Positions 6,651-39,234 of a stretch of DNA of 45,330 nucleotides are shown here, piece by piece. The stretch's first letter is position 1, and each line of letters starts with the position of its first letter. Below the pieces are notes generated by a model. The model did no database searches and was not told the origin of the DNA. It saw nothing but the letters and a program-made list of their open reading frames with translations. Origin of the DNA: Phyllosticta citribraziliensis (lineage: Eukaryota); the NCBI RefSeq assembly GCF_038025025.1, contig NW_027117340.1, positions 2,480,001 to 2,525,330 on the forward strand. The letters run 5' to 3'. Position numbers and translations under genes: made by a program.

Positions 6651-6659
6651 TTAGTTTAC

Positions 6660-8440: not shown

Positions 8441-8450
8441 AGGGGGGGCA
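8441..8450 (+). promoter_or_regulatory. Polypurine tract of A1
   Basis: AGGGGGGGCA immediately before the TGTCA start of the 3' LTR; mirrored at 9278-9287 (A2) and 31407-31416 (A3). Confidence 0.9.
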
Positions 8451-8873: not shown

Positions 8874-8878
8874 GATAT

Positions 8879-9277
8879 ATCTTAATTAAATCTAATAAGT
8901 TAAAAGAATAAAATATAAAAGATACTTACTATCTATATATTTCCTAGTCCTTCCTTTATACTATTCTACCTCTTATCCTTTATATAAGGGTCCTTAGTTA
9001 TTATTAGGTGAGTTATAAAGGTAAGGTATTAATGGGCTATTATGTAGTATCTACCTAGGGCTATAGTAGCTAGTGCCAGGCTATAGTAGCTAGTACTAGC
9101 CTGTAGGTTTTAGCCTAAGCTATAGTAGGCTGCTACCTAAGGTGAGGCTTATACTTCCTATAACTATATAATACTAGGTTCGTCTATACTAGTTCTAGTG
9201 CTCGCCTACTATATAATACTAGGTTTATCTATACTAGCCCTAGTACTTATATAGGCGCATATATGCCTATTATAATA
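8879..9277 (-). repeat. A2 3' LTR, proximal fragment (with 45-bp internal duplication)
   Basis: 69 nt (558-626) + 399 nt = 468 bp, equal to the partner LTR 16679-17146. Confidence 0.9.
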
Positions 9278-9829
9278 TGCCCCCCCTAAAGAGAAGCTAA
9301 AATTATAGGAATTAGCAGCTATAGGTGCTTATATAGGCGCAGACTTATAATATATAACAGCAGTAATTTAGTAATTTAAGCATTCTATATAGTTATAAAG
9401 TATAATTATTAGTCTAGGTCTATTACTATACTATCTCTTTCCATTACTATCTCTTTTACTGCGCGACCTATAGAAGGTTACTATCTTACTTAGCTATATC
9501 TAAAGCTCCCTATTAAAGTACATTATTATCCCAGTCTAATTTAGCTATAATCTAGTAAACTAACTGTCGCGCGCGAAGGTTCTAATAATTTAAATAATTT
9601 ATACCCTACTAATAGTAAAGCAGACATTCCTAGCTACTATACGCTTAATACATCTACTACTCATTATAGTCTAGTCTATCAGGACTTATTACTATTATAT
9701 AAGAGTTATAGTATTAAGTTATTATTATATAGCATTATTTATAATCCGTCATAGTCACTACTCACTTAGAGAGCTATTTTAGCTAGTAGTATCTATAAGG
9801 GCTATTATATAGAGTCCTAAGGTAAGTAA

Positions 9830-11070
9830 ACTTTAATTCTATCTCTTTAGACTATTACTAATTATTATCTAGGCTATTAAGTAGTATTATATATCTAGGT
9901 TCTACTACTTCATCATCCCGTCTTGCTAACTAATATAATTATAAAGGAGGACACTTATATAAATACTTAGTCAGGCCAGGCTTTACTTATTTAGCCAGGA
10001 ACTACTATAGGCTTATCACTTTACCTATAGCATACTATAGTATCAGGTTCTACTTAATTAGTATTATTAGTTATTACGTAAGGTTTATTATCTACAGCTA
10101 TACAGCCTGCTACTAACTAGCCTATTATACCACATTACTACTAGTTTACTGTTGCGCAGCCTATTTTAGAGGAAGAAGGTAAAGAGCCTACTTATATATA
10201 CTATTATTATAATCCTATAGCTTATTAGGTTCTAGTAGCTAAGTACTTACTACCTACTACTTTATATAATAGTAGTAATAGTAAGATTCATGTTATAGTA
10301 TTACTAGTTGGTTCTAATAAGGCGCCTATTAAGTAGGACTTTAAGTTGATGCTTTATATCCCTTATAAGAATATAGAGAGTATTATATAAGTAAGTTTAT
10401 CTTACTAATATAAGGGATTCTTATCTAACTAATTATATAGGTACACCTTAGTGGTTCTAAAGTATAAGAGCGCGCTAAATATATCTTGGCCTTAGGTAAT
10501 AGCATGCCTCACTCACACATCATAGTTTCTACTTAGCAATTTAACTACTTATTAGTTAAAACTTAAGCCAGCTTACACGATACTTTTCTTATCTAGTATA
10601 CTAGAATTAATAACCCTATTAGCTACACTAAGTATCGCAATAATACTAATACTTATATATTTATTAGTTATTACTACCTGCCTAGTTTCTTATAGGGCCA
10701 TTACGCCAACTACCTTTAGGGTATAGGCAACTTAGACTGCACTATTAGTAACTTAAAGGGTACTAAGCCGCCTACTTATTATAAGAGGCATAAAGATAAA
10801 ATTTATATAGAGAAGTTCTAGAACTTATACTACTAAGCTAGGGCAGAGGATTAAACTAATTAGGCTTTAGCTAAGTAGGATATCCTACCTAGTAAGCTAG
10901 AGGATCTAGAAGAGACTATCTTATATAATAATAGTTATAATAAGAAGAAGGGAAAAGGATAGAAGTAAAGGGTAAAAAGTAAAGAAGAGGGAAGTAGGGG
11001 ATAAGTAGTAAAAAGAAGAGACTAGAGAGTAGAAGTTAAGGTTAATAGTATTTATATAAGGGTAGATAGT
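9830..11070 (+). pseudogene. A2 antisense accessory ORF relic with six-Cys cluster
   Basis: Homologous to the A1/A3 region; cluster at ~10558-10743; Lys/Glu-rich tail 10940-11040; limits uncertain. Confidence 0.55.
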
Positions 11071-11077
11071 AAACTAA

Positions 11078-14000
11078 TTAGTCTACTTTCTATATCTTTA
11101 TAATATTTACTACAGGCCTAAGTGACTTATTTTATTATTACTTTCTATTTTAATCTATAGTTCTTCTTAGAGGAAGGCAGTCTTCTATTTTTCTAGATTT
11201 TTTAGTAGTCCTGCTATAGTAGGGTATAATAAGTGGAATTCTTTAATTTTCTATAGTGCGCTGCTAAAAGAACTTGTGTTATACTACTAGTTATCTTAGT
11301 TATATCTAGTCTATTTAACTTAGTATTAAAGCTTTCTATATAAGACTTAACTAGCTTAAATATAGTCTACTTCCTACTTAGGCTCGTCTTAAATAATCTT
11401 AGGTTCTAGTTTAGTATATTCTTAACTAGGAAGCTGTTCTATTTCGGCCTTATATAGCCTATTAGTATAGAAAAGGTTAACTATCTTTATATATAAGGGA
11501 AGATTAAGGATATAGGAGGGTCCTTCTATTCCTATAATCTTAAAAGGTCTAGTATTAGGAAAGTCTAATTTAAGGTTTAGCTGATTAGTAGACCATTCTA
11601 TTTTCTTAATATAGATATAATCTCTAACTGTAAAGTCTAGCACGCGACAGTATTTATTAGCTTATTAGTATATATACTCTTAGGATTTAAGAATAAGATT
11701 CTTTATAAATTTAAAAGCTTCTTATCTTCTCTTTTATAGCGTTTATACTACTATATGAGCTATTTTCTCTAGTTACTAAGGGGTTTCGGTTCTTTATTAC
11801 TAGTTATAGTATAATTAAGGGGAATATCCTAACTCAATCTTAAAAGGTAAAAGTCTAGTAGCTTTATAGGGAAGTGTTGCTTGTATAAGGTCTATTAATA
11901 GTAGAAGATCAGACTAATCATTCTAAAAGTAATTAATAAAAGGTCTTAATCTTTATACAAGATGCTGATTAATAATCTCTATAATACTATTAGTTTAAGA
12001 GTAGTAGGATGAGTTAAAATGCTGCTCTATACCAGTTAGCTTATACAGTTTATTTATAAATACTAAGATGAACTAAGGGCCTTAGTCAGATAGGATAGAC
12101 TTAGGGTTTCTATAAATATAGTAGATATATTTATAAAAGAGTCTAGAGACTCCTTTAGTATTAATCTTTTTTATATAAGGTAAACTAAAGGTTCTTTAAC
12201 TTAACTAGTCTATAATAACTAGGATTATATTATAGCCCTTTTAGTCTTTAGGCATCTCTTTAAAATCTATAGCTAAATATTACTAGGGTTAAGTAGGAAT
12301 CTCTAGGGGTTATAGAAGGCCTAGGTCTTTATTATAAAACTCTTTTATTTAGTAGTAAATATAGCATCCTTGCCCATAAATATTAATTGTGCGATTTATA
12401 GCTAGCTAATAGTAATATTACTTAAGGAGTTTTCGCATCTTTATAATACTAGAATAGGTGGTTATATAGGTGGTATATAAAGTATTAAGCATTCTTATAT
12501 AGAGGTTGTTATAATCTAGTATAAAGAGTATGCTATATTATAGTAAAAGACCATCCTTTAGTTCCTAACTATTTCTTTATTTAAGGTCCTTTAAGAGGGC
12601 TTTCTATCTCTAGAGTTCTAATTTAGAATCTTCCTAGTTTACGCAGAGGAGTTTATCTAAAAATAATACTAGAGGAGGAAGTTCTTATTCTAAAATAGAA
12701 AGAGGGATAATAGTCTCTAGTAGGATAAGGCATATCTCTTATATAGCTCTTACTTTTTCTTTTTAAGTCTTCAGGTCTTCTTATTTTTAAGTAAGGTAAT
12801 TAGTAATAATATTTTCCTTTCCTAGTTAATAGGAGAATTATATGTAGAACTCTATAAAAAACTCAGACCATCTAGCTTATTATTAATTAAGTTGTCGTTT
12901 AGTAGAGTAGTACTCTAACACCTAATAGTCCGTAATTATAAGAAAAGGTTTTTTAAGGCTAATAAGTATTAGTCTCTATTCTTCTAGTCTATTCTTAATA
13001 GCCAGCAGTTCTTTATCTAAAATTCTATAATAAAGTTCTACATCTACTATTACCTTAGAGTAGAATGCTACTAGTTTCCAATTATATAAAGGTTGCTAGA
13101 GCTGCGTTAAAACGCCAGCAGTAACTCTATTACTTATATTAGTCTCTATATAAGTGTTAAGAGTAGGGTCATAATTAGCTAGGAGTGCATTACTATATAT
13201 TAGCTTCTTAAGTTATTAAATTGCCTCTTCTTCTAGGGGTCCTAGTTATCGCCATTTTACCTTAGAGTATAGTTTCTCTAATAGCCAGCTAATTTATCTA
13301 TAGTTAGGGAGAAATCATTAGTAGAAATTATAGAAACCTAGGAAGGATTAAAGAGCTTTAAGGGTTTTTAGTATTAGCTAGTTTTATATAGGTTCCACCT
13401 TATCTAGGTCTATTTAAATGCCTTCTATAGAAATAATATATCTAAGAAACTTTATATAAGTAACTAAAAACTTACTCTTCTTTAAATCCACCTATAGTCC
13501 TACTTTTTATAGTCTTACTAGTACTTTTTTCACTTATTCCTCATACTCTATAGGGTTTTTAGAGATAATGAGTATATTATCTATAAAAGCCATAATAAAA
13601 TCATCTAAATACTTAAAGAGAACCTGGTTAATAAAACATTAAAAGGCTGCAGGTCCATTACTTAATTTAAATAGTAAGATATAGTATTTAAATAACCTAT
13701 ATCTTATATAGAAGGTGGTTTTGTCTTTAGAATCCTTAGTAAGATAAATACAGTAGAAAGCTTATTAAATATTAAGCTTAGTATAAATCTTGCCCTTTCT
13801 AATATGCTAAAGTAACTCTATAATAAGAGGAAGGGGGTGTAAATCCTTAGCAGTTTATTTATTAAGCTATTAGTAGTCTATATAGAATCTCCATCCCCTA
13901 CTAGGCTTTTTTACTACTAGAATAGGAGAAGTATAGGTGGTAAAGCTTTTAGTAATAAAGCCTTTCTAAATATTCTTAATAATATACTCTTTTATAGCCT

Positions 14001-16444
14001 TAAGCTGCTCTAGAGACATTCTATAGAGAGGACTTAGTAGAAGCTCTAGTAGACTATTATATATAAGAGTTATTTTATAATTAACTCTTATATAATATGG
14101 TAATAGCTTATTAGACTCTATTTTAGAAAACACATCTTGAAATTCCTTATAAGTAGCTAGTAGCTTAGAAGCTAATAATTCCTCAGTTTCTTTATCTTTA
14201 AGAGCCGCTTAAACTTATATAAGGTTAATAGTATAGATCTCTATTAGTATAACTTGTATTTTATAGATAGAAAGCTTAAAAGCATCTTAAGTTTAAAATT
14301 CAATTCCCTTAATAACCTGTACTAAGGGAAGAAGGTGTTTATTAAAGTTTTTATCTCTATAGTCTATATCTACTTAATGTTCTTTCTGCAGTTTATTACT
14401 TTATATAGAGACTTTTAGTAGGCGTAAAAGATGCTAAAAGGATTAGTTAACTAGTAGCTATCTCTAGACTAGTTTATATTATTTATAGTCTAGAAGAATA
14501 TTATGCTGGTTGAAAAACTATTACCTAAGAATTATATTATTATAGCCAATATTATAAATAAAAGTATAAGTAGAAACCATTTAATCTTAGAAATAGAGTT
14601 AAAGATAAAAGTAAAAATTGACTTTCTTATTTATATATTAGTTAAACCTAGTAATATTAAGCCCTTTACCTATTATTCTCTTTTTTATAGCACCTATAGA
14701 CTGGAGAGTTAGTAGTAGCTTAGGGTGAATAAAACTTATACTACTAGTACTAGTATTAGCTAGGGCATAAATTTCTAAGGCATGGCTATTAGATATAATT
14801 AAGGTTTATACAGTAAAGGGTACACCTCTAATAAAGTGACTAAGATTTATATAAGAACCTTTAATATATATTACTCTAAGTTTAGACCTAAGGTAGGAGA
14901 CTTTACCTAGGCCTTATTATTTTCTAATAAAGACTAATCTCCTTTATTTATATAGACTTCTTCTATACTTTCTTCTTCTACTAACTCTATTACCTTTATC
15001 TCTAGTTATAGGTATTGCCTCTATAAATAGCTAAACTGGCTATAGTGATTATATAGTCTAATCTCTATATAGACTTCTACTTTACCTTTATAGGTTGTAT
15101 TATATAAGGGAGCCCTGGATATAGATCGCGCCTAGGTATAACTAGAAGATAAAGTACTTATACTACCTAAAGTAGTTATCTTTACTTATTCTTATTATCT
15201 CTTCTTTACTTAATCCTTATGTGACGTGAGCGTTAGTTTTCTATAGTTAGAATAGTAGTTACTAAGACTTTAAGTAATAGGGTAGGCTTATTAGAGGTAC
15301 TTATAAAAGTTAATATCCTTATCTTACTCTATAGTAACTATATAGGTTTAAAGGAGAGGATCTATTATATTATAAAAGTCCTCTTTCTACTATTCCTAGG
15401 GAAGATCTATATCTAAGGCTAATTATATAAAGTTTAATTAAAACTTCTAAAGGTCTATAGAAATATAGTATATAAGAGAGTATAACTACTTCTTTATATC
15501 CTTATATTTATATAGACTCTAGAGGAGGTTATCTAGGAATTTAAAGATATCCTTATCTAGAGTGACTTTATTAGCCTTTATATAAGAAGTAAGAAAAGGA
15601 GTTAGGTAATATAAGACTTCTCTACTAATATAGGAAATAATATAACCTATAATATTCTATTTAGTCTCCTCTACTATATCTTTAGTAAAGTAATTATAGT
15701 TTTATTTAATTTTATTTTATATAAGGAGGGTCTAGTATTTATATAAGGGGTCTTCTCTATTAGTAAGAAGAGGAGGATTAGGAACCTTACTACTTTAGTA
15801 TTTCTTACTACTTAAAGATAAAGTAGAGGTTTTAGTAGTAGTTTCCCTTATATAGTTAGGAGGAGGTCTAAGAGTCCTTATAACTCTACTAGTAGAAGGA
15901 TCTTAAGAGAGGGTAATAGGTCTTAGGTACTAAGCTAATAAAGAGGGCCTAATATATCCTTCCCTTAGAACTTCCCTAAGTCTATTAGTATAGTTTAAGA
16001 GTATTTACTTAAGAGCCTAGTTTTGCCTTTATGCGTGGTTTAGTTGCTGCTGTACTTGAGACTTATTTAAGGATATAATCTTAGATTTAAATTAATTAAT
16101 ATCTAAGCGCGGTACCTTTATAAATGCCTCTATAACTAGAGCTTAAACTGTATAAGTTGACCCTAGGTCTTAGGTATGTTCTTTTACCTCTACTACTAGG
16201 ACTAAGTAGAAATTATATAGGAGAATAGGGGTAGGTCCTCTCTTATTATTATTTAATAAGTATCTAGTATTGTGTAAATCTTTAGTGCCTTTATGTGAAT
16301 CTTGTTAAGTTGATTGACTAGTACTGATACCTTTAATAGTGCTAGATATATTAGCTTTATTCTTAGCTATACTGTCTTTATAGTCTTCTACTTAGAATGT
16401 CCCTTAAGTAGGTTATAGATGGGATACCTCCTAGATATTTATAT
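11078..16444 (-). pseudogene. pol: A2 gag-pol relic
   Basis: Reverse complement of A1 gag-pol; track ORF 11422-11643 (DFTVRDYIYIKK...RPFKIIG) is a surviving piece of the integrase GPY/F region. Confidence 0.9.
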
Positions 16445-16678
16445 ACTGCCCTGTAGCCTTAACTAAAGACTTCTATAGTTAATATATACTTAATACTCCT
16501 TAGTCCTTAGATAACACTGATGCGCCTAATAAAGATGACTTAGGTTTACTAGGGAAAAGTAATAAGTAGTCTTGTATAAGACTATAGCTGTGTATAATAT
16601 TACTTAGGTTAAATATTATAATACCTTTATAGGTAAAGAAGTAGGATAGAGCTAAAACTTAGAATAATCTTTTATATC

Positions 16679-17146
16679 TATTATAACTTATAGATTTCTT
16701 ATTATATAGGTAAGGGCTAAAGGTAAACTACTAGAGAATATATATATATCTTAATTAAATCTAATAAGTTAAAAGAATAAAATATAAAAGATACTTACTA
16801 CCTATATATTTCCTAGTCCTTCCTTTATACTATTCTACCTCTTGTCCTTTATATAAGGGTCCTTAGTTATTATTAGGTAAGTTATAAAGGTGAGGTATTA
16901 ATGGGCTATTATATAGTATCTGCCTAGGGCTATAGTGGCTGGTGCCAGGCTATAGTGGCTAGTACTAGCCTATAGGTTTTAGCCTGAGCTATAGTAGGCT
17001 GCTACCTAAGGTGAGGCTTATACTTCCTATAACTGTGCGATGCTAGGTTTATCTATACTAGCCCTAGTACTTGCCTACTATATAATGCTAGGTTTGTCTG
17101 TACTGGCCCTGGTGCTTATATAGGCGCGTGTATGCCTATCGTGACA
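16679..17146 (-). repeat. A2 5' LTR (468 bp)
   Basis: Reverse complement of the A LTR plus a 45-bp tandem duplication (units in register at 17041 and 17086). Confidence 0.95.
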
Positions 17147-17571
17147 GTATAACTATTATTTTAACTAGAATCTCTCCTAATAACTGTTATATACTGTTAG
17201 GTATATAGGGGCTGGTCTAGGACCTATATCTAGCTAGTCTAGGGATTGGTTAGAAGCTACTAGATAATAGTATTAGCTATAGTTATAGACTAATATATTA
17301 GGAGGCTAGTTAGTAGATTCTATTTTCTCTTCTCCTATAGTTTTAGAGGTAGGGGAACCTAGCTCTTCTAGAGTAGATTTCTCCTTCTTACTAGACTCCT
17401 TTCTAGCTTCTTTACCTTATATAAGGTACTATCTATAGGTAGTTTATCTCTTACTAGTGCCCCTTATATTATTAGCCTTAGATAGTTATAACTAGGATCT
17501 TAAACCTAACTCTCTTTTTAATCCTACTCCTGTATTTGCTGGGGTGGGTAATATAAGTTATTTTAGGTAGG

Positions 17572-17740
17572 TATAATAATCTAACTAGATATTTATAGTA
17601 CTAATTTAGGTGTAAGAGTTGTCCTATTACTTAGGCTATCTATATAGCTAAAGTACCTATCCCCTATAACTACTAAGCTTACTAAGCTTACCCTTAGTAT
17701 CTAATAGCTATACTAGATCCCTATAGGATCTACTACTATA
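17572..17740 (-). repeat. Element B 3' LTR (169 bp)
   Basis: Matches 28428-28596 except for transitions. Confidence 0.93.
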
Positions 17741-17874
17741 GGTAGTAGCTAAAGTGGTTTATAGGTACCCTTACCTATATTTACTATCTAGTCCTAATCT
17801 ATACTCCTAAATCTATAGAACTAATCTATATAGTAATTATAACTATTACTAAAGGAAAAGAAAGGGAAAGCTTT

Positions 17875-20500
17875 ACTTATTATTATTATCTATTACTATC
17901 TACTCTAGAGTCTTAATCTATCTATCTCTAGTATCTAAGAGGTAGGAGCCTATAGCCTTAGTATTCTACTTTACCCTAACTATAGCTATTACCTTATTAT
18001 CCTAGGATTACTTACTACTTAAGTACTTAGATCCTAATTAGTTATTAATATTAATTACTCTATTACCCTTAGTTTATCTATATATCTTACGCGCTATATT
18101 ATAGATAGCCTTATATATAGTACTATCCTTTTTATAGGTAGTACTATTAGTATTAGACTTATCTTCTTTATTAAGTAGGTTAGTTAGGGCTAATATCTTA
18201 TCCTTAAGGTTAATAACCTCCTTATTATCTATTATACTAGGGTAATTAGTAATCCTATATTACTTAGGACTTAGCTTATTAGGGTCTAGCTTAGTCCTTA
18301 TAGTCTACTTCTTCTTAGGCTTAATTATAGTTATAGGGTTCTTAGGATCCTTATTCTTAGGACCCTTATTATTAATAGCTTTTAAGCTATACTAGGGTTT
18401 ACTATCTATACTAGATCTAGGTATACTAGTAAATATACCCTAGTATTATAGTATTAGTATTATAATACTAGATTTACTAGGTATTAGGGTAGATAGGGAG
18501 CTAGGATAAAAGTATAGATTAGGGTTAATAATCTTACTAGGATTAATTATATTAAAGATATTATTACTAGGGCTAGTAGTAGGATATAAGGGAGTATACT
18601 TCTATAATCTAAGTATAAGTAGAGTTCTATAGTACTAGTAGTCTAGCTAGTTCTATATCTCTACTATATAGTATTTCTTCTCTTATTCTATAGTATCCTT
18701 CCTTACCTACTCTTTAGCTAGACCTTCTTTAATCTAGGCCCTAAATAGGTTTACTAGGTAGTACTAGGGGCCTATAGGTATATAGTTATAGTTATAGAGT
18801 ATTAGATTATACTAGATATCTATAATATTCTACTTAATATAGAAATCCCTAGGTAGGGTAGTATATAATATAGACCTAGCCACCTTCTATAGTAATCTAA
18901 TCTTAGTTAATAACTAGGTAGTAAAACTATAATATAGGAGAGTATAGTTATTAAGTAGTACTAGGATTATATAAGATAGTAGGCCTAGTATCTAGTAAGT
19001 CTATAATTTAGTTAGGTTTAGTAGTAGGTTACCTATACTATCTAGAGTCTAGAAATACTTATTAAAGGGATAGGTATACTTTAGACCTATATACTAGAAT
19101 ACTATATAGACCTCTTCTATCTAGAGATAATTATAGGGCAGGATACTATAGTATATTATAGTATATAGTACTATTAGATCCTTAAATTAAAATAGGTCTT
19201 CCTTTATCTATCTATAGTATATACTACTAGCTATAATAATATTACTTCCTTTAAAGTATCCTTCTTATAGGGATTATCTATCTTCTACTCTAGATAATAG
19301 AGTAATAACTAGCTTAACCTTATTAATATAGCTAGTAGTAATAGGTAGTATCTTAGTAACTTCCTATTTATAACCCTTCTTAATAATAAAAGGTAGAGGT
19401 AGCCCTATAATATTATAGTTATAGGTAGCCTAGTATATAGCTTAGAAAGCCTTATTAGATATATTAGTCTAGAAATTAGTATTATTAAAGATATAGAAAC
19501 CCTAGAGGAGTATTATAATATTAGATTTATAGGGTTTAACTATATTATTATCCTTAACTTTATACTAGAGAATATAGATAGTATCCTAACTAGTCTTTAT
19601 AACCTAATAGCTATTATTAAAGGTGAGCAGGGCTATATACTAATATAGGATATTAAAATAGTACTAGTACTATAAGTAGGCGCATACTTTAAAGTAGAGG
19701 CCTAGGACCTAGACTAGCTTAATTAAGGTAAAGTACTCCTTATTAGGGGTAAGGTAGTCTAGAACCTTCTTATCCTAAGTAATAATAGGTACTACCCTAC
19801 TACTAGAAGATATATTCCTCTATTTATTAGCTTAGTAGCCCTAAGTATATTCCTTATTTAGATCCTTACTAGGATCCTTAGCTATAATAGTAGTATATAT
19901 CTTATCTCCTCCTAGCATCTTATACTTATAGATCCTAGTATAATAGAAGGCATTACTAATCTTCACCATAAAAGCTCTACTATAGAACCTATAGTAGGGA
20001 TTTAGTAAGCCCTCTATATAGGTATAAATATAGTACTTACTAATATTTATAAGCTAGAGGTTACTAGCTATTAATTATCCTACTAGTAAGTAGAGCTATC
20101 CTTCTATATATAATAATAAGTTATATCTATAGGGTAGAAGACTATAGGTATATATAACTATAGTCTAGATACTATTAAAGAGTACTATAGAATCTATAGT
20201 AGCTAGATTAGTAGTTCTTACTAGTTTACTATCCTCTCCTTTATTATAGGAGCTCTTTACTAGTAGATAGGTAAATATAGATATTAGAGCCTTATCCTTA
20301 GATAAGAAGGATATTATCTCTTTACCTAGAGGTATATTAGTATTAAGGTTAGGATCCTAGTTATATATATTAGTTACTAAATATTTACCTTTACTAGGTT
20401 TATATTTTATAATAGTAGTAATACTATAAGCCTTAGATTTATATTTTACTTAAGCTATAATCCTAGTAGACTACCTTAGTATAAGCTAGCCTAAGGGTAT
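17875..20500 (-). pseudogene. Element B extra ORF3 relic, same sense as pol, probably spliced; product unknown
   Basis: Long protein-like frames on the minus strand (C-terminal part de-RIPs to roughly KPKKKRTVRTKPDPDK...DEEVIDLEDE); candidate intron 19989-20040 GTAAGT..CTAA..TAG. Confidence 0.5.
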
Positions 20501-20879
20501 AATAGTTAGTAAGTATATTAAGCTAAGATATAATAGATATTAAAAGGGTGAGGGTATAGTGATAGATAATTATAGTTTAGACCTTAGGTACCTAGGTAAT
20601 ATAATTATACCTACTAGTATCCCTATATCCTAGCCTAAAAATAAAGGGAAAATAAATAAAGAAAGATAAAGAGAACTCTCTATAATATCCTAACTCTCTA
20701 TAATATCCTCTATATTATATCTTCTCCTTAATAAATAAAATACCTTAGTATAACCTCCTTATTATATTCTTATTACTATTACTAGAATCTATATCTTTAT
20801 CTACTATTACTAGCTCTAGGCTAGTATAAAGAAAATGTCCCTAGATATATATATAAGGAAAATAATATGGGATAATAAT

Positions 20880-23800
20880 AAAGGAAGAGCGCCTATTTAG
20901 GCGCAGTATAGGATTACTATATAAGGACTCCTAGTATAGTGGCCCCTGTGCTTATTATGCTAATAGGCTACTTTACCCTTATTAGTAATATTATTATAGG
21001 CTTGTAGGGGGTCCTTATTTACTATAGTTCCTATAGGTTCTTAGATACTAGTAGTCTCTTCTAATACTAGGATGCTAATAGTAGTGTTAGTAGGACCCTA
21101 AGGATACCTAGTAGGGGTGTATTACTTAGTTATATAGGTTTCTATATTAATCCTTATATTGTACTCCTTAACTAGGTCTTAGGTATTATAAAGGTTCTCT
21201 AGGTTTATCTACTAGTAGTATTTAGCTCCTTATCCTTACTAGTTAACTAAGTATTAGATCTTCTTTAAGTAGGGATTATGGTGCTGTAATAATAGTACTT
21301 AGATTTTATATTCTAGTACTATCTTACCCTTAGTTATAACCTCTAATAGTCCTAGAGGTAGAATATCCTGGCTATAAGGGTCTGCCCCTAGTATAGTATA
21401 AGGCTTAAGCTGTATAATGCTAATTACTAGATAGATTTTTATATTATTAGGGAGCTTAAGCTTATATACTAGCTTAGATCTAGTATAGGCCTTAATATAG
21501 AAAGGTCTAATAAACTAGTAGGTAAATTTCTTACTTATATTTCTATATATATAGTATTTATAGTATAGTTAAAGTCTTACCTAGGATCTAACTAGTAGGT
21601 GGATAAGCTTATACCTCTAGTTATATATATATTTATAGGAAGTATTTATAAAAGTAATACCTTTATAAGCTTAGTCCTAGAAATGAGCTCTTATAACCCC
21701 TAGTTTAGTATCTAGTAGCTCCTATTAGATTATTATTATTAGGTTAACTTATAGCTAGAATCTAAGGTATATCTTATCTGGAGTCTGGCCTGTTGCTATA
21801 TTAGGGGAAGAGTTTATTATAGCCTGAATTATAGGAAGGGTATTAGTCTACTATAGCTTAGTATTTACTATAATAAAGTAGTATAAGGTAATTTTAACTA
21901 TTTAATTTATCTACTTACTCTAGCTATCTATCTAGGGATGGTATACTATACTAGCTATAAAGTTAATCCTAAGATACTTAAAAATACTATTTATAAAGTT
22001 AGAGAGCTAATAGCTATCCCTATCTAAAATTATAACTGAAGGGAGTTCCTAGCTAAGTACTAGGATGGTTTTAATAAAAATACCTCCCTATTTACTAGCT
22101 ATTTAGGTCTCCTATCTAGGGACTAAGGCTATATACTTAATAAATTTATAGGTAACTATTAATAGTATATTAAATACCTCTATAGTAGGGGGTATCCTAG
22201 TAATGAAATCTACTATGATAGTATAGAAAGGTAATTTTAGGCTAATAATTAGGTATAGGGATCTATATAGCTTATACCTAGGAGTCCTATTCTATTTATA
22301 GTCTAGATAGTTATAGATATACTTAGATAATTATAAGTTTAAGTTATAGATAAAGTAAGCTAGATAGATATAGCTAAGTACCCTATTAATCCCCTAGTAG
22401 CTATACTTATTATAGGCTATTTTAAAGATATCCTTCTTATAACTTAGTAGGATATATAGGTACTCTTATCTATTAACCTAATCTTAAAAGTATACTAGGC
22501 TATTATAGATAAAGAACTATAGACTACTAGAAGGAGCCTCTACTAGGATATAGTTCTCTAGGGGTATATTATCCTAGTTAGCCTACTACTCCTATTTAAC
22601 TATTATAACTATCCTAGACTACTTTTAGTCTTTAGTATAGCTAGTATAGATCTTAGCCTTAAAGGTATTAGAAAGTTCTACTAAGGTAACTTAGAATATA
22701 AAGGTTTAATTATCTTTTAGAATTATATAGTTATTATTAGAGGATAGATATTCCTTAGTATCTAGGTAGCTAAGTATATCTAGAATAATATAGTTTTACC
22801 TAGCCCTATAGTATAGCTCTAAGTAGAACTAGCTTAGGAACTAGGATCCTTATATAAGCTTTATATTTAGGTATTCTATAGAATCTATACTTAGGAAGTA
22901 AGTCTAGGTAGTAATAGCTATAAGAGCTAAGTAGTCTATAAAAATAATTATATACTTTATAGATTCTATATAGAGATAAAGCTTATAAATAGCCTAGACT
23001 ACCCTAGCTATCTTAAGCTTAGTAGGCTAGTATCTAGATTCTATACCCTTTACTTATTTAGATAGGAAGATAATTAGCTATACTAATACCTTAGGAAAAT
23101 ATTTAGTATACTTAAGCTATTTAACTAATAGATCCTAGACTAATCCTAGTCCTACCTAGATACTATCTAGTTACTTAATAGCCTAAGTATATAGGGCTTA
23201 TCTATCCTATACTACTAGTACCTAAGGCTCTATTTTAGGCTTAGGATCCCTAATAATATGGTAGGCTATTACTCCTATACTATATTCCTTACTTATATTA
23301 ATATTAATATATAAAGGCCTCTCTAGATTATAATATACTAACTAGTCTATATTATATAAGGTTTCCTTAATTACTTTAAATATATCTAGCTAGTCTAGGT
23401 TAGGGTTATTCTACTTCTTAGCTACTACTTAATAGTATGTACTCTTAGTCTTAGGGATCCCTTTAAGTACCTTAGCTAGTAGTACCATTTTAGTTACTTC
23501 TAGTAGCTCTACTAGGTAGGTATAATATAGTATATACTACTATAACTATCTAGTAAGCCCTAAGAAAGTTTTAAGCTTTTAGAGGGTATTTAGGAAAGTA
23601 AGGTCCTTAATAGTATAGATCTTATCTTTATAGGTAATTACTCTATAGCTATAGATATACTAACCTAAGTATAAAACTAATAGGTATCTAAGTAGTATCT
23701 TCTTAGGTAATAAGGAGATCTATCTATTATCTAGTACCTTTAGTATAGAGTCTAGGTATATAAGGTATTTATTAAAAGTTTTAAAGTATATTAGTATATT

Positions 23801-26800
23801 ATTAATATATATAAAAGTAAAATCCTAGCAGCCTATATAGTATAGGATATTATTAAATTAGTACTAGATATATAGTATACTATTATAGAATCCTATAAGA
23901 GCTACTACTAGGGTTTCCTAGCTATAGTAACTCTAGATTATTATATAGTACTAGTAGGCTTACTTAACTAATTATTAATAGAAGAAAGATTACCTATTAA
24001 TAAATAAGGCATATAGATATCCTTATAGATAACTTACTAAGTCCTAGATAGTTTTTAAGGCATACTTATTATAGCACATTAGGGTATTTAAACCCTAGAT
24101 ATCTATAACTCTATAACCCTTATACTTATACTAGACCTATAGGGGCCTATCTCCTAGTTAGAGAAGCTAGTAATACTTATCTTTCTAGATAATAAAGGCT
24201 AGCTAAGCAAATTCTATTAGCTTATCTATCTATAATATTTTAGGCGTTCCATCTACAGCAATCTAATTATATAGGTCTTTAAAGGTCTTATTCAGCACCT
24301 ACTTACCCTTATAGGATATACTATATACCTAAGTTAGTAGGAGGTATCCTAGCTTATCTTACTAGTTATCTACTAGGTTAATAGGTATCTAGTCTTCTTT
24401 AGGTATATTAACTATAGTATATTAGTCTATAAATAGTAGTAGATACTTCTTTAGGATCTTCTAAAAGGTATTAATATAATCTAGTAGGCTATAGATATAA
24501 ATACTATTATTAAGAGTAGTTTCTAATTCTAGTAGGATCCTATTATAGAATATACCTGCTATAGAGTAGTTAGATACCTAGTAGTAGCTATTAATTTCTA
24601 TAGCTACTAAGTATCTAAGCCTTACTTATTATAGGATTATGAGTAGCTTATCTATATTATTATAAGTAAAAAGCTAACTAAAATCTAAATTATATACTAT
24701 ATAATATAGGATACTGCCTTAAACCAGGAATAGAATCTAGCTAGTTTACTAATTAGGTTAAAATTTATATAGCTAGTTAGGGAGATCCTTACCTACTATT
24801 ATACTAATTAGCACTAATAAATATAGCTTAATAATTACCTGCTATATAGCCTTAATAACCCTGTATACTAGTATGGTATACTTCTATAGGACTACCTTAG
24901 TCTATAGGTTATAATAGAAAGGCTATATTACTATACTTTAGCTATTAATGAGGACCCCTTAAGGTTAGATAATATTTATACTAATAAGTAGTAGGATTAG
25001 TATATTATTAATTACCCTTATATAGTATTATACTATCCCTATAGCTTATGACCTATTAGGCAGCACCCCTAGTAAGTAGAGTGGTAAAAGGATATACTTG
25101 TTAGATACTATAGGCTTACCTACTACTCTATAGATAGTACCTACTATTAGTAAGGTCTAGATCTTAATATTAGGTAGTTTATTATATAGGAAGCTTCTTA
25201 TTACTAAGGATAAGGATACTCCTATATTTAAGTAAGCTATATTAAGGAATCCCTTAGGTATGAGCTAGAAACTTATTTCTATAGATTGGTATATAGGGAA
25301 ATAGGGAGGTGCCTAGATATCTACTATATTTACTAAAGAACTAATTATCTATAGATCCTATATACTTATAGTAAAGATGGTATTAAGTACTTATAGTATC
25401 TTATTAAGCTAATAATTATACTCCTTAGTTTTATTACCCTTAGACCTATTCTATACCCTAGTAGGATGGTCCTTTAAATGCGCGAATAGCTTATTATGTA
25501 ATATAAAATATATTAGATAGAACTGGTATCTGTATAGTAAGATTAGTTAAGTATTATCTAGGGTCTTATTACTGGTACTAGCTAATAGGCCTAATAGGGT
25601 AAGGTTAATAAAAAGTATAAAATCCTTATAATAGTAATAAGCTGTATCTTCCTCTATAGTATCCTTATCTACTAATGCCTTATTACCTTTATCTAGGCTG
25701 CTATCTAATATATCTCCTTTATCTTCTTTACTATTACTACTATCTAGGCTGCTAGTATAGTAATTAGGCTATACCTTAGCTAGGCCCTTACCCTTCTAGT
25801 TCTAGTATTAGGATTTTGAATTAGTAGTATTTCTAGTATACTAAGGTAGAGTAGGTAGGGCCTTTTTCTTAGGATATATAATCTACTTCTTAGCTATAGT
25901 ATTACTTATATAACCCTAGCCCCCTTAATAGGAGTTATTAGTATTATAGTAGGGATTTTATAAGAATCCTTACTAATTAGTATTATATATAAAAGGTTAC
26001 TTACTTACTTATAGATATACCTTATTATATAGCTCATACTATATATACTAGTATAACTTAATATCCTAGATAAATTCTTCTATAGTAGTATCTACTTATA
26101 GGTATAGGATAAGTATATAGTATTATACCTCTATCTTATTCTAAGCCTATATTAATTAGCTGCGCACCCTAGTAAGGCTAGATACCTTACTATACTAGAC
26201 ATAATCTAATATAAAATCTGCTATTAGAATATTATTATATATACTATATTTATTAAACTTTATTTTATCTAGCCACTTTATAGCTTTATAGACTAGTAGT
26301 CCCTACTATTCCTATAGCACTTATACCTAATTATTAATACTATCACCATCTAGGAGAGCATCCTAATAGGCCTTTATTAACTACTAGATATACTATTTAG
26401 TAGCTTATCCTTTAAGGCATCTTCCTAGGTTTTTATATATAACTTATACTAGAATATATTATAAGGATATATCTGTAGCTTTAATAAATTACTTAATATC
26501 CTAGTAGTAGGTCTAGGTTCCTTTAATTATAATATTACTAGGCTTAAATTTAGCTTCTAGGAGGTATAGGTTAAAGAATCTAACCTCCTTAGGGCTAAAC
26601 TTTAGTACTAGTAACTACTAATAAGAAGGAAACTACTAATCTAGATCTAGGGTAGTCTATAGACTAGTATTATATAGGTATTCTATAGCCTTCCTTTTAT
26701 AATCTATATACTAGATTATAGCTCTCAGGCTATCCTAATTAGCTTAGGCTTTATAGGTAGTATTATATTAGGTTTACTAGTAACTCTCTAGGGATTTAAA

Positions 26801-27056
26801 TAATTTACCTAATTATATATTAATTTTACTTATACTAGTATTAATTATAGTAAGCCTTATTCCCTACTAACCTAGTAGCTTAGATTAGTTACCTAACTAT
26901 ATATTAAGGTCAGTAATAGCTACATCCTAAGCACTAAGATTAGTTTTAAGGTACTAGGCTTAGGCCCCTATAAAAGATAGTAGGTCCTCTATATTACCTT
27001 ATCTACTACCTCTAGATCCTAATCCTTTACTAGATCTACTAGCCCCAGATATCATA
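20880..27056 (-). pseudogene. pol: Element B gag-pol relic
   Basis: De-RIP: CLDTG ~25220-25236; FVYIDD ~23799-23816; LYIDIDASKE ~23287-23316; YWPTELE ~23012-23033; TVDFITGIP ~22194-22220; ISDRD ~22017-22031; AYHPQTDGQSER ~21911-21946; VGPF ~21502; chromodomain EYEI..YSVDW.G ~21150-21320. Ends approximate. Confidence 0.88.
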
Positions 27057-28427
27057 ACTCTCTAGTAGTATTAAGAACCTATACTTAATTAGCTTATAGG
27101 ATAGTATTTAGGTACTCTAGGGGGTAGGAGTATAGGAAGTAGCTTATATTAGTTATATTATAGTAACTAGGAAGGTTTTAGTAAGGGGAATTAAGTATCT
27201 AGGCAGTTAGTATCATACCAGATAATTATATTAAGGGATCTACTATATAAATCTAAAGAGAGGTTATTACTACTTATATTATAATAGTTAGGGAAATAAA
27301 AGGCTCCATAGTAACTAGGCTAGTAAAGGTTTAGATCTATAGAGTAGGATTTATAGCTTAACACATAAGAATAGTAGAAAAGATTAGAAGGTATATATAG
27401 AGAGGATAAAAGTCTATAGGATATATTAAGGGAGGATATATTAAATAGTCATTATTAGGCACAGCTAGGTATTAAAGGACTAGCTAATTCCTAGGCAGGT
27501 AATAGCAGGTATATTACACCTATATTAGGACCTAGGATCTAGTATAGTAACTACCATTATAGTTACTTAGTTACTATAGTACCTAGTTATTATATACTAT
27601 CTTCATAACTAGCAGATCTGTGCAGACTAAACCTATAGAGGGTAATTATACTATATTCCTTAATTATACTCTAGGAAGACCATTATACTAAAGGGGCTTA
27701 TAGTATTAAAGGGTAGATTAGAGTTAATATATATAGTATTATAATATATTAAGGAGTAGTAGGGGTTAAAGATATAGGTACTAGTATAGGTAGTACACTT
27801 ATAATACCAGCTATAAAATATATAGTATCCATAGATTAGCTTATTAGTACTAGTATCTAGCCTATAATCATCTAGGATTAGCTAGAAGAACTAAGTAGTA
27901 AGCCTATAATAATAGGTAGTAGGGTAGAGCCTTATAACTAAATCTTATAGGCTAGTATACTAATCCTAGCAACCTAAGTAGCATACTCATTAATAAACTC
28001 CTATATAGTATATAAGAGAGTCTATTAGCCTTTAATAGTAGAACTCTAAGTAATAGGGTATCTAGGAAGAGCCCTACTAGCCAGATTCCTTATACTAGCC
28101 TAGATCTTAGGAGGATTAAACTATTATATAAAGATAAAGATTAACTAATAGGTCAGGGCAAGGAGTAGATCCTAGAGGGACTATAGGCCAGTATCTAAGA
28201 GGTTCTATAATTACTAAGTAAGTAGTTAAAGTTTTATAGGTAGTTCTTATTACTCTATAGTTATTAAGGTAGACCAGGTTAGATTCTAGGTATAGGAGGA
28301 TCTTAATACACTATTAATATAGTAGAAGATATATTATATATTTAGATCTAAGTAGCTAGTATAGCAGTAGTAGAAGCAGTATAAAAAGGGGTTTTAACTT
28401 ATAGAATAACCCTTTTTAGCTACTATA

Positions 28428-28596
28428 TATAATAATCTAACCAGATATTTATAGTACTAATTTAGGTATAAGAGTTATCCCATTACTTAGGCTATCTATA
28501 TGGCTAAAGTACCTATCCCCTATAACTACTAAGCTTGCTAAGCTTACCCTTAGCATCTAATAGCCACACCAGATCCCTACAGGATCCACTGCTATA
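28428..28596 (-). repeat. Element B 5' LTR (169 bp)
   Basis: Direct repeat of 17572-17740, upstream of gag on the minus strand. Confidence 0.93.
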
Positions 28597-28601
28597 GTAG
28601 G

Positions 28602-30375
28602 TAACCTGCTTATTATTACTTAGTCCCTTAGTACTTATATTATACTAAGGGGCTGTATATCCTCTATTAGTCCTTTTATAGTTTACCTAGCTATAGGGGT
28701 AACTTTAGTTAGTTATCTATCCCTAGCCTTACTAGGGGAAGGTTCCCTTACCTACTTTATAGTGTTATACTAGGTACTCCTAAGTTTAGTAATAGCTCTT
28801 AATTATTTTAATAAAGGACTATATAGTTATTTAGGGTATAGGCTCCTCTAGCTACTACTAGTAGAAAGGATCTATTTTAGTAAAGGTATTAGTAAGCTAA
28901 TTATAGATAGTCTAGAAGCTAGCTATATATCCTAAATAGATATAAGTAATTATAAAGTCCCTAGTACCCTTATTATATACCTCCTTAAGACTAAAACTAA
29001 TAGTATTTAAAGTATTAATTACTTTATACTAGGTTATACTAAAATCCTCCTAAAGTAAGGTAGCCTAGTATTTAATACTAGCCCTAGTATATATATAGGC
29101 ACAGTCCTCCTCTATAATTTATAAAGTAAACTATATATTAGTAGTTCCTTTAAGATACTTCTATAGATTAAGTTATACTATCCTAGTACTAAATATTATA
29201 TAAGCTATCTAAGTACTATTAATAAATTATTCTATAGTATAGTAAACTACCTTCCTATATTTTATAGTACTACTACCCTAGCTAACCTTATCTTTACCTA
29301 GATTAGGGTTAAAGTAGCTAATATTATTAGGGTAGAAGTATAGGAAAGTATAAGAGTAGTTATAGTTATTATCTATATACTAAATAATTTATTAGTCTAC
29401 TACTAGTAGTAGAGACTACTTATATATTATACTATTAGGGAAATAGAACTAGAAGTATAATAGTAGTTATAGTTATATAAGGTTTAATAGTCCTCTATAA
29501 TTATAGGTTTTAAGAAAAGGAAAACTAGACTAGGCATAGTATTCCTAGTAGTACTATACCTTTATATCTAGGTAAAAGTAACCTATATTATCTTAGAGGT
29601 AGTAGGTATTATTTATAGTATTACTAGTAGATTTAAGACTAGCTAGGCACTTACTTAGTAAGCTATAGAGGGTATTAATACTATTATTTATACTCTTAAA
29701 GCTTTCTATTTATACCTATTACTAGTTAAGGATAAGCCCCTAGAGTCTAGTAATCTAGCTTATTAAAGTAGTATACTCTACTAGGCCTTATAGGATCTCC
29801 TCTATCTTATCTATAGTATTATAGTACTATCTTTCCTTACCCTAAGTATCTATTCTTTAGCTAGTAGGGCCTAGCCTAGCTATAAACCTCTAAATACTAG
29901 GGCTACTAATATTAAAGCCTATAGTAGGTATACCTTATATTAGTATAGGTAGTATAAAGGTTCCTATAATCTAAGCTAGTAGAGGTAGGAAGATTCCTAC
30001 TATAGAGACTATTAGTATAGTAGCCCTAGTAGAAAAGGGGGCCTATACCTACTCTATACTAGTACTATAGGTATTAAAAGTATAGGTATATAATTTTAGT
30101 AGAGGTACTATTATTCTAGATCTCTAGATACCTAAGAGATCTAAATAGTCCCCTTACTAGGTCTTATCACCTTTATCCCCTTAATAATTATTAAGACTAT
30201 TATTATAAGGGTTATTATACTACTTAGTATTATAATTAATATATAGGTTCTCCCTACTATAGGGTAATATCTCCTCTATATCCTTACTACTACTATACTA
30301 GGGGTTTAGTTTAACTATCTCTATTAAGGAGGTATAATATCCTTTACCTTTATTAATAGGGACCTATAAAGCTAT
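28602..30375 (-). pseudogene. Uncharacterised low-complexity ORF relic (continues at 17566 down to ~17310), putative extra ORF of element C
   Basis: Minus-strand frame from ata-gct-tta-tag-gtc (probable ATG) with an acidic N-terminus; the frame reads through the element B TSD; at least one frame change/intron near 29150. Confidence 0.4.
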
Positions 30376-30983: not shown

Positions 30984-31406
30984 TATTACGACTCGCAGAT
31001 TTCTCGTTATGTAGGTAAGGGCTAAAGGTAAACTACTAGAGAATATATATATATCTTAATTAAATCTAATAAGTTAAAAGAATAAAATATAAAAGATACT
31101 TACTACCTATATATTTCCTAGTCCTTCCTTTATACTATTCTACCTCTTATCCTTTATATAAGGGTCCTTAGTTATTATTAGGTGAGTTATAAAGGTAAGG
31201 TATTAATAGGCTATTATGTGGTATCTACCTAGGGCCGTAGTAGCTAGTACCAGGCTGTAGTAGCTAGTGCCAGCCTGCAGGTTTTAGCCTAAGCTGCGGC
31301 AGGCTGCTACCTAAGGTGAGGCTTATACTTCTTATAACTACGTAATACTAGGTTTATCTATACTAGCCCTGGTACTTATATAGGTATATATACGCCTATT
31401 ATAACA
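30984..31406 (-). repeat. A3 3' LTR (423 bp)
   Basis: Reverse complement of the A1 LTR; single copy of the 45-bp unit. Confidence 0.95.
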
Positions 31407-31959
31407 TGCCCCCCCTAAAGAGAAGCTAAAATTGTAGGAATTAGCAGCTATAGGTGCTTATATAGGTACAGACTTATAATATATAATAGTGGTGATTTGG
31501 TGATTTAAGCGTTCTATATAGTTATAAAGTATAATTATTAGTCTAGGTCCCTACTATACTATCTCTTTCTATTACTATCTCTTTTGCCGCGCGACCTATA
31601 GAAGGTTACTATCTTACTTAGCTATATCTAAAGCTCCCTATTAAAGTATATTATTACCCTAGTCTAATTTAGCCATAATCTAGTAAACTAACTATCGCGC
31701 GTAAAGGTTCTAATAATTTAAATAATTTATACCCTACTAATAGTAAAGCAGATATTCCTAGCTGCTATGTACTTAATACGTCCGCTACTTATTATAGTCT
31801 AGTCTATTAGGACTTATTACTATTATATAAGAGTTATAGTATTAAGTTATTATTATATAGTATTATTTACAATCTATTACAGTCACTGCTTACTTAGAGA
31901 GCTATTTTAGCTAGCAGTATCTATAAGGACCATTATATAGAGTTCTAAGATAAGTAAAC

Positions 31960-33200
31960 TTTAATTCTATCTCTTTAGACCATTACTAATTATTATCTAG
32001 GCTATTAAGTAGTATTATATATCTAGGTTTTACTACTTCATCATCCCGTCTTACTAACCGATATAATTATAGAGGAGGATACTTATATAAAGACTCAGTT
32101 AGGCTAGGCTTTACTTATTTAGCTAGGAATAGCTACAGGCTTATTACTTTACCTATAGTATACTATAGCGTCAGGTTCTACTTAATTAGCATTATTAGTT
32201 ATCGCATGAGGTTCATCATCTACAGCTATACAGCCTGCTACTAACCAGCCTATTATGCTATATTACTGCCAGTTTACTGTCGCGCAGCCTATTTTAGAGG
32301 AAGAAGGTAAAGAGCCTACTTATATATACTATTATTATAATCCTACAGCTCATCAGGTTCTAGCAGCTAAGTACTTACTACCTACTACTTTATATAATAG
32401 CAGTAATAGTAAGATTCGCATTATAGCATTACCAGTTAGCTCTAATAAGGCGCCTATTAAGTAGGACTTTAAGTTAACACTTTATATCCCTTATAAGAAT
32501 ATAGAGAGTATCGTATAAGTAAGTTTATCTTACTAATATAAGGGATTCTTATCTAACTAACTATATAGGTGCGCCTTAGTAGTTCTAAAGTATAAGAGCG
32601 CGCTAAGCGCATCTTAGCCTTAGGTAATAGCATACCTTACTTATATATTATAGTTTCCACTTAGCAATTTAACTACTTATTAGTTAAAACTTAAGCCAGC
32701 TTGCGCAATACTTTTCTTATCTAGTACACTAGAATTAATAACCCTATTAGCTGCACTAAGTATTATAACAATACTAACACTTATATATTTATTAGTTATT
32801 ACTACCTGCCTGGTTTCTTATAGGGCCGCTGCGCCAACTACCTTTAGGGTATAGGCAACCTTAACTATACTATAAGTAACTTAAAGGGTGCCAAGCCGCC
32901 TGCTTATTATAAGAGGTATAAAGATGAAATTTACATAGAGGAGTTCTAGAACTTATACTACCAAGCCAGGTTAGAGGATTAAACTAATCAGGCTTTAGCT
33001 AAGTAGGACATCCTGCCTAATAAGCTAGAGGATCTAGAGGAGATGGTCTTATATAATAACTATTATAATAAGAAGAAGGGAAAAGGAAAGAAGTAAAGGG
33101 TAGAAATTAAAGAAGAGGATAGTAGGGAATAAGTAGTAAAAAGGAGAGACTAGAGAGTAGAAGTTAAGATTAATAGTATTTATATAAGGGTAAATAGTAA
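31960..33200 (+). pseudogene. A3 antisense accessory ORF relic with six-Cys cluster (DUF3716-like)
   Basis: 32686-32870 includes ctg cct ggt ttc tta tag ggc cgc tgc gcc aac (LPGF.WGRCAN); track ORF 32255-32464 probably belongs to an upstream exon in another frame; limits uncertain. Confidence 0.6.
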
Positions 33201-33205
33201 ACTAA

Positions 33206-39229: not shown

Positions 39230-39234
39230 ATTAC

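Follow-up and report, generated by a model that had tools for sequence, protein, structure and literature searches.

To our knowledge, the priming of the plus strand from a purine tract that resists RNase H counts as near-universal in retroviruses and in retrotransposons with long terminal repeats (LTRs). Annotation tools use this polypurine tract (PPT) as a defining feature. The locus described here raises the question of how the plus strand may be started when the tract is missing and its slot holds the complement of the primer-binding site (PBS). The locus is element B, a Ty3/Gypsy chromovirus degraded by repeat-induced point mutation (RIP) and carried on the minus strand of a 45,330-nt stretch of Phyllosticta citribraziliensis DNA (contig NW_027117340.1, positions 2,480,001-2,525,330; hereafter the window). 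In this element, TAGTAGCTAAA is present at 17743-17753 on the plus strand and its exact reverse complement at 28415-28425, each 2 nt inside an LTR. A first-pass annotation had pointed to this pair and to the perfect target-site duplication (TSD) GTAGG around the LTRs, and both were recovered in our analysis.

A PBS complement in the slot of the polypurine tract

The inverted 11-mer pair is real and non-random. The window holds two exact copies of TAGTAGCTAAA, these two only, with 1.4 expected from Markov-1 simulations, and the probability that two 11-mers of window composition at a fixed offset are reverse complements of each other is 1.6e-5. Compared with 300 random interior 40-mers of B, the 11-nt complementary run has P = 0.003, and the energy of the duplex between the PBS and its complement (hereafter the anti-PBS), -22.5 kcal/mol, was equalled by none of the 300. 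The inverted similarity continues imperfectly to ~19-20 nt (16/19 matches, by hand) and, when the LTR-terminal inverted repeat is included, a repeat search extends it to 29 nt at 79%.

Element B is bounded by direct repeats (17572-17741 and 28428-28597) with 92% identity. These differ by 13 transitions and no transversions; therefore, the LTRs were identical at insertion and diverged by RIP alone. With the LTR limits taken as 17572-17740 and 28428-28596, the outer flanks form a perfect 5-bp GTAGG duplication, and each 11-mer lies exactly 2 nt from an LTR. The perfect TSD and the purely RIP-type LTR differences establish that this copy arose by real retrotransposition. The direct LTRs, whose TA...TA ends correspond to RIPed TG...CA, and a duplication within the 4-6 bp range agree with membership in Ty3/Gypsy.

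The retroelement signals in B come from the minus strand alone (translation with X at stops). A 1033-residue read-through of 24400-21301 matched 6787 proteins at E <=0.001 (phmmer; best 8.3e-95), and the top matches are mostly polyproteins of 1800-2200 residues. Among four homologues, RVT_1, RT_RNaseH, Integrase_H2C2, SH3_Tf2-1, and Chromo are present in all and rve in three; judged by these domains, the homologues of B are chromoviruses of the Tf1/sushi-like kind. A hidden Markov model (HMM) profile of seven homologues (hmmsearch) identified pol with an independent E-value (i-E) of 3.5e-157 (24526-21149) and gag-protease (PR) with an i-E of 7e-17 (26602-24572), and it had no match on the plus strand. 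The order PR-reverse transcriptase (RT)-RNase H-integrase is found on one strand, based on the HMM (26602-21149, minus) and on tblastn to polyproteins with RVT_1, RT_RNaseH, Integrase_H2C2, and rve. Pfam searches of B itself gave only sub-threshold RNase H matches. The tblastn alignment of B to the homologue P0002 runs through residue 1997, and the Chromo domain of P0002 spans 1946-1999; no Pfam Chromo match was found on the RIPed translation of B. Because the coding strand is minus, the right-hand LTR is the 5' LTR, the right 11-mer is in the PBS position, and the left 11-mer is in the PPT position. The first-pass annotation had treated the two 11-mers together as PBS-like motifs. Both are indeed present, but with this orientation the genuine PBS is the right-hand one and the odd motif is the left-hand one.

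For comparison, we used relatives from a set of 66 loci obtained by a profile scan of metagenome contigs. Both LTRs were resolved in seven of them (L001, L003, L009, L032, L038, L052, which is the same element as L036, and L024), and these LTRs are only 86-229 nt long. The 3' junction was readable in nine, namely, these seven together with L002 and L014, in which the LTR start was inferred from TGTTA following the motif. All 66 loci are approximately equidistant from the RIPed B (~26% identity), with L038 and L048 slightly best.

The right-hand motif (28415-28425) is, judged by comparison of sequences, the ordinary initiator-tRNA PBS of B's clade, because TGGTAGC or a RIP-like version of it lies 1-4 nt after the 5' LTR in seven of seven relatives. 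TGGTAGC itself is found in L001, L003, L024, L038, and L052, while L009 has TAATAGC and L032 has TAGTAGC, both apparently RIPed; further relative loci read ...ACA + 3 nt + TGGTAGC. These un-RIPed sequences at the same place bear out the earlier assignment of the motif to an initiator-Met-type PBS. Element B has TAGTAGC, a RIPed TGGTAGC complementary to the tRNA, 2 nt after its 5' LTR, and reads TAGTAGCTAAAAAG where L038 reads TGGTAGCTGAGAAG. The initiator tRNAs of yeast and human are reported to end in GCUACCA (bioRxiv 10.1101/2020.07.01.182105; PMC12775451), and Ty1 and Ty3 are described as priming with the initiator tRNA, with a PBS of 8 nt in Ty3 (PMC4974528). In the relatives, the PBS mostly matches the tRNA over only 7-8 nt, and that of L038 may match it over 11 nt.

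Three further observations concern the PBS region. In L008 (1014-1038), the complementarity of the PBS reaches into the tRNA T arm through an in-register GGTT (PBS positions 15-18); in L011 (4967-4991), it does so through GTTCGAT at positions 17-23. In B, an inverted repeat (AAAAAGGGG ... CCCTTTTT) is present at 28385-28417, such that the 3' part of the PBS could pair with the leader ~15 nt downstream; this is a possible PBS-occluding hairpin.

At the other end of the element, the relatives share a common arrangement. In all nine, a hairpin is followed by 17-26 nt that begin U-rich and pass into a short G-rich tract, after which the TG of the LTR follows. A hairpin with a G-rich loop at this distance is present in B as well. 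The stem sequences vary by element, and the loops of the relatives are GG, AGG, GGG, AGGG, CGGA, AGGA, and AGGGCC. Stems of at least 6 bp occur at this place in 9 of the 10 elements (nine relatives and B), vs. 250 of 2000 random placements. The G-rich tracts of the relatives read ...GGGCAGAT, ...GGGCAGGT, ...TGGCAGTT, ...GGGGGGGAGTT, ...AGGGGGGAT, ...CCGGCAGA, ...AGGGGGGATATT, ...CCGGCAACT, and ...AGAGGCATT. These tracts are short, weak, and often contain C (e.g., ...CCGGCAGA). The conserved hairpin ~20 nt upstream of the 3' LTR, together with weak C-containing tracts, suggests that plus-strand primer selection in this fungal chromovirus clade relies on structure besides purines.

In B, the slot between hairpin and LTR consists of 19 nt, AACCACTTTAGCTACTACC, and no polypurine tract was found just inside the 3' LTR. 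The last 12 nt of the coding strand before the 3' LTR contain 4 purines, compared with 6-9 in the nine relatives (counted by hand in L024 and L014), which agrees with the earlier statement that a normal plus-strand tract is missing there. RIP cannot have erased such a tract, because it makes only transitions and never turns purines into pyrimidines. Element A, another repeat in the window, serves as a control for RIP: its tract AGGGGGGGCA is kept at the inner edge of one LTR in three of three copies. For these two reasons, we conclude that B is truly without a primer tract, and the anti-PBS stands exactly in the slot of the tract.

We also considered that the pair might be an artefact of head-to-head element nesting, of a 5' end duplicated in inverted orientation, or of coincidence in low-complexity RIPed DNA, given that the window is built as a mosaic from nested elements and that the internal region of B is long (10.7 kb). 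However, the LTRs are direct and have a perfect TSD, no internal LTR pairs were found within B by repeat search and self-comparison, and gag-pol occupies one frame on one strand, while the opposite strand of 17742-21149 gave no sign of gag. The likeness of the two ends stops after ~20 nt, the clade hairpin lies at the correct distance, and the chance of coincidence is only 1.6e-5. By reasoning, crossovers inside LTRs cannot create the junction between the U3 start and the anti-PBS either, as they leave the neighbour of the LTR end unchanged. An artefact is therefore very improbable. The inverted 5'-end duplication in particular was rejected based on the repeat search and HMM searches of both strands; a RIP-tolerant blastn search for it was too permissive, returning only background matches of ~59%.

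Likeness to the initiator tRNA and candidate explanations

The initiator tRNAs of human and yeast are reported to share AAACC (positions 58-62), seven variable nucleotides, and GCUACCA (PMC12775451; bioRxiv 10.1101/2020.07.01.182105). The sense strand of B before the 3' LTR reads AAACC-ACTTTA-GCTACTA. The earlier claim that this strand resembles a tRNA 3' end thus extends further than was proposed, over AAACC, 6 nt, and GCTACTA, and the 18-nt anti-PBS resembles the initiator-tRNA 3' end in its sequence. In alignments made by hand to the human and yeast tRNAs (the initiator tRNA of the host itself may differ), the anti-PBS has 14 exact matches to the 3' 19 nt of the human tRNA, with three C-to-T differences, one transversion, and one missing base. 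The complement of the B PBS, (T)AACC-CTTTTTA-GCTACTA, is in register with the tRNA, and over 18 nt it has 12 exact matches, four transitions, and two transversions relative to the human tRNA.

A template jump onto the tRNA may be the simplest origin of the anti-PBS. In one round of reverse transcription, minus-strand DNA would reach the 5' edge of U3, add two bases, jump onto the 3' end of an initiator tRNA, and copy ~18 nt. Copying of a primer tRNA normally stops near position 58. The minus-strand DNA would then return to the genome just 3' of the hairpin, by which the U-rich/G-rich primer tract would be deleted. As a result, it would bear another PBS-like site, the end of which is 2 nt away from U3. 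The template tRNA, already annealed with its 3' OH toward U3, could prime the plus strand.

Our preferred reading, in which belief and doubt are nearly balanced with doubt slightly ahead, is that the tRNA-end mimic marks plus-strand priming, for which the primer is either a tRNA or an RNA oligomer that was spared. In later rounds, a second packaged tRNA could anneal to the minus-strand DNA and prime the plus strand. Alternatively, the same RNase H cut that removes the tRNA could set free an oligomer of the genomic RNA whose sequence imitates the tRNA end. Packaging of initiator tRNA in Ty virus-like particles has been reported (PMC4974528), as has a cut by RNase H that removes the tRNA at the RNA/DNA junction in Ty3 (PMC5371799). 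Either route would produce equal 2-nt spacers, mirror symmetry, and correct LTR ends, because both strands would share a 3'-terminal primer sequence. A bolder form of this reading is a lineage without a polypurine tract, in which both DNA strands start from the initiator tRNA 3' end, the minus strand from a real tRNA, the plus strand from another tRNA or from a released genomic RNA mimic. Such double tRNA priming would be coherent as a mechanism, and it rests on one degraded copy; we consider a lineage of this kind unlikely, although well short of implausible.

Several points weigh against plus-strand priming at the anti-PBS. A G-rich tract is present in each of the nine relatives, even in L038 as the nearest; the state of B is therefore derived and could be a defect. 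The left junction is readable in one B copy alone. The anti-PBS and the complement of the PBS differ at 3 of 19 positions, and two of these differences are transversions. The anti-PBS also has 6 rather than 7 nt between AAACC and GCTACTA. Due to this shortfall and these differences, it is neither a faithful copy of the tRNA nor a fresh copy of the PBS. Past the seven terminal nucleotides, its match to the human and yeast tRNAs rests on invariant positions only. A complete cDNA can be made without priming at this site if plus-strand strong-stop DNA comes from a second packaged genome.

The strongest rival holds that B is a one-off aberrant cDNA, which resulted from a single tRNA jump and received strong-stop DNA from a second, normal genome, leaving a copy that was dead on arrival, as it had no plus-strand primer, and a motif without function. 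The retention of the G-rich tract in 9/9 relatives fits this explanation, as does the imperfect anti-PBS, because a 1-nt shortfall is what an error-prone jump may leave. Two RNAs per particle are described as textbook knowledge for Ty elements (PMC4974528). Public sequencing runs bear on the number of copies: contigs 80-99% alike, with transition-type differences, were found along most of B in two organisms, so the B family is multi-copy, and the best share of words with B in a run was 0.12. Contig X1 crosses the right junction (28272-28536) with 4 differences, none within the 11-mer, and contig X2 crosses it (28359-28596) with 15 differences. The left junction (17741-17760) was bridged by no contig among the matches listed in these runs, so the anti-PBS is seen in one copy. 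On the other hand, an aberrant cDNA needs two rare events in one particle, a jump and an intermolecular plus-strand transfer. The template tRNA would itself sit in a priming position, so that the jump alone would provide a working primer. The two arms also differ by two transversions, while the 170-nt LTRs have acquired none since insertion, a hint that the motif predates this insertion. We consider a one-off cDNA a real possibility, with doubt clearly outweighing belief.

Another explanation is RNA cyclisation. Here, the anti-PBS would pair with the PBS region of the same or a partner RNA and, like CYC5:CYC3 of Ty1, would join the two ends of the genome so that initiation or strand transfer can proceed, and the plus strand would be primed otherwise. 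The 11 exact base pairs and the duplex energy of -22.5 kcal/mol (0/300 controls) are in its favour, and efficient initiation is reported to need an end-to-end interaction in both Ty1, by direct pairing, and Ty3, by a tRNA bridge (PMC4974528). However, this pairing would occupy exactly those bases to which the tRNA has to anneal, in contrast to CYC5, which sits beside the PBS. It would also leave the missing plus-strand primer unexplained, and in the seven relatives for which both junctions are known, no complementary run between them exceeds 6 nt (P 0.23-0.70). For these reasons, cyclisation appears improbable.

Self-priming of the Tf1 type would make the PBS complementary to the transcript start inside the LTR, with the 3' copy as a second copy of the primer sequence. 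By the integrase SH3 and the chromodomain, B and Tf1/sushi belong to the same broad group. The duplex between RNA and PBS in Tf1 is 11 nt long. Self-priming is described as common in this group (PMC6317226, PMC2864245), and in Tf1 the primer is reported to be made by an RNase H cut of the RNA:PBS duplex (PMC5006619). An 8-mer complementary to the PBS, TTTAGCTA, is present at LTR position 89 of B. However, TTTAGCTA is common in the window (23 copies vs. 26.9 expected), and the un-RIPed relatives have a plain TGGTAGC tRNA-type PBS. The primer of Tf1 is the transcript 5' end inside the LTR, in contrast to the complementary piece of B, which precedes the 3' LTR. We found no significant LTR complement to the PBS in B; the best is 8 nt, and a match of at least 8 nt is reached by 44% of random 30-mers. 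Self-priming was rejected on this basis, and we give it almost no credence.

Comparison with known systems

Literature searches, which did not cover supplements, turned up no description of an LTR element whose PPT is replaced by a PBS complement or tRNA-end mimic; the closest published case is that of Skipper (see below). Ty3 of Saccharomyces cerevisiae is similar to B in that its minus strand is primed with the initiator tRNA, which binds a short PBS (8 nt, nt 121-128) lying a few nucleotides past the 5' LTR, and RNase H is reported to cut its tRNA/DNA junction, while the tRNA bridges the genome ends through a bipartite PBS (PMC4974528, PMC5371799). Unlike B, which is without a purine tract, Ty3 has a 12-nt tract, GAGAGAGAGGAA, that primes the plus strand. 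The 3' PBS segments of Ty3 are located in U3 and bind other tRNA arms, whereas the primer slot of B holds a sense-strand imitation of the 3' end of the tRNA. In Ty1, CYC5:CYC3 resembles the pair in B as a direct 5'/3' complementarity near the PBS that is reported to be needed for efficient initiation (PMC4974528). Ty1 differs in being a Copia-type element that retains its PPT and has CYC5 downstream of, rather than on, the PBS; the 11 nt of B coincide with the PBS, and the PPT is absent.

The dictyostelid chromovirus Skipper is similar to B in that one of its two primer slots has lost the canonical sequence (PMC5006619). Its PBS is reported to be replaced by a polypyrimidine stretch, and the authors suggested novel self-priming (PMC5006619). 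By analogy, Skipper may be viewed as a mirror image of B, with a PBS slot that resembles the complement of a purine tract and, in B, a PPT slot that resembles the complement of a PBS. As described in that source (PMC5006619), Skipper is without the TGG, whereas B keeps a TGG-type, RIPed, tRNA-type PBS and has no polypyrimidine stretch in that slot. The feature of Skipper is also common to whole families across species, while that of B is seen in one copy.

A more distant likeness exists to the DR1/DR2 system of hepadnaviruses, in which plus-strand synthesis starts from a short RNA oligomer, and its site is set by sequence identity with another genome site rather than by a purine tract. Hepadnaviruses are a different virus class, their primer is a capped 5' RNA fragment, and they have no LTRs, integrase, or tRNA.

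Correct integration of an element whose PPT slot holds a tRNA-end mimic would mean that the primer sequence is replaceable. If plus-strand priming at the mimic is true, either the specificity of RNase H for the tRNA/DNA junction or a second tRNA could define an LTR end; taken together with the polypyrimidine 'PBS' of Skipper, this would point to a general principle by which both primer slots can come to share a single primer. If B is instead a one-off accident, it would still be a clean fossil of a template jump onto a primer tRNA. Independent of these readings is the outcome that, in this clade of fungal chromoviruses, a hairpin whose loop is G-rich is conserved ~20 nt upstream of the 3' LTR.

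Features and surroundings of element B

The features of B, the tracts of element A, and the hairpins of the relatives are listed in Table 1. The unusual length of B is due to its ~1.8-kb leader (28407-26603) and to a 3.4-kb stretch between pol and the hairpin (21148-17780). In the latter, no Pfam match, no tblastn match with 150 homologues or the open reading frames (ORFs) of L038, and no HMM match were found.

Table 1. Coordinates of features in the window and of hairpins in the relatives (relatives in the coordinates of their own loci)
Feature	Position	Strand	Remarks
Left target-site duplication GTAGG	17567-17571	none	identical to 28597-28601
3' LTR of B	17572-17740	minus	169 nt; direct repeat; TA...TA ends compatible with RIPed TG...CA
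Spacer between anti-PBS and 3' LTR	17741-17742	minus	2 nt; CC in sense
Anti-PBS	17743-17760	minus	sense AAACCAC TTTAGCT A CTA; last 11 nt (17743-17753) are the exact PBS complement
Hairpin TATAGGTA-AGGG-TACCTATA	17760-17779	minus	19 nt upstream of 3' LTR
Stretch from end of pol to hairpin	17780-21148	minus	3.4 kb; without recognisable coding content
Gag-PR-RT-RNase H-integrase-chromodomain polyprotein	21149-26602	minus	one frame, full of RIP stop codons
Leader, PBS to first gag similarity	26603-28407	minus	~1.8 kb; profile search
PBS of B	28408-28425	minus	sense TAGTAGCTAAAAAGGGTT, RIPed TGGTAGC...; complement in register with A59 A60 C61 C62 and GCUACCA of initiator tRNA
Spacer between 5' LTR and PBS	28426-28427	minus	2 nt; TA
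5' LTR of B	28428-28596	minus	direct repeat
Right target-site duplication GTAGG	28597-28601	none	
AGGGGGGGCA tract, element A copies	8441-8450, 9278-9287, 31407-31416		
Hairpin, L001	6784-6801		approximate
Hairpin, L003	8096-8117		approximate
Hairpin, L009	10918-10932		approximate
Hairpin, L032	10606-10622		approximate
Hairpin, L038	12757-12778		approximate
Hairpin, L052	16469-16484		approximate
Hairpin, L024 and L002			likewise present

The window is heavily RIPed fungal repeat DNA with a GC content of ~0.30 and RIP indices of 1.8-2.2 (TpA/ApT) and 0.0-0.37 ((CpA+TpG)/(ApC+GpT)). Its self-comparison revealed three copies of element A and one pair of 170-nt direct repeats, which bound B. Element A is a Gypsy element of 8.2 kb with LTRs of ~420 bp, and its copies are located at 625-8879, 8871-17139, and 30984-39231; the first two are oppositely oriented and abut or overlap at 8871-8879. 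No tRNA genes were found in the window or in 41 scanned of the 66 relative loci. An Rfam scan of the window found nothing at gathering score, with only far-sub-threshold noise around the left junction.

Immediately outside the 5' LTR of B, a fragment similar to gag (28795-29337, minus; profile positions 90-265, i-E 3.6e-8) belongs to a different element of B's clade. An older relative thus seems to have been the insertion target of B, and TAGTAGC at ~29902-29908 (minus) may be the PBS of that older element. A degraded Gypsy pol of a different family was found at 39942-41477 (minus; tblastn E 1e-41 to P0130). L038, whose PBS is the most similar to that of B among the relatives, has a comparable length of ~12 kb and two further ORFs after pol, at 8157-9407 (416 aa) and 9438-12098 (886 aa), which are also found in L048; neither has a Pfam family or a match in B. 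Within B, a 20-nt purine run, AAAGGAAAAGAAAGGGAAAG, is present on the antisense (plus) strand at 17851-17870, ~110 nt from the LTR.

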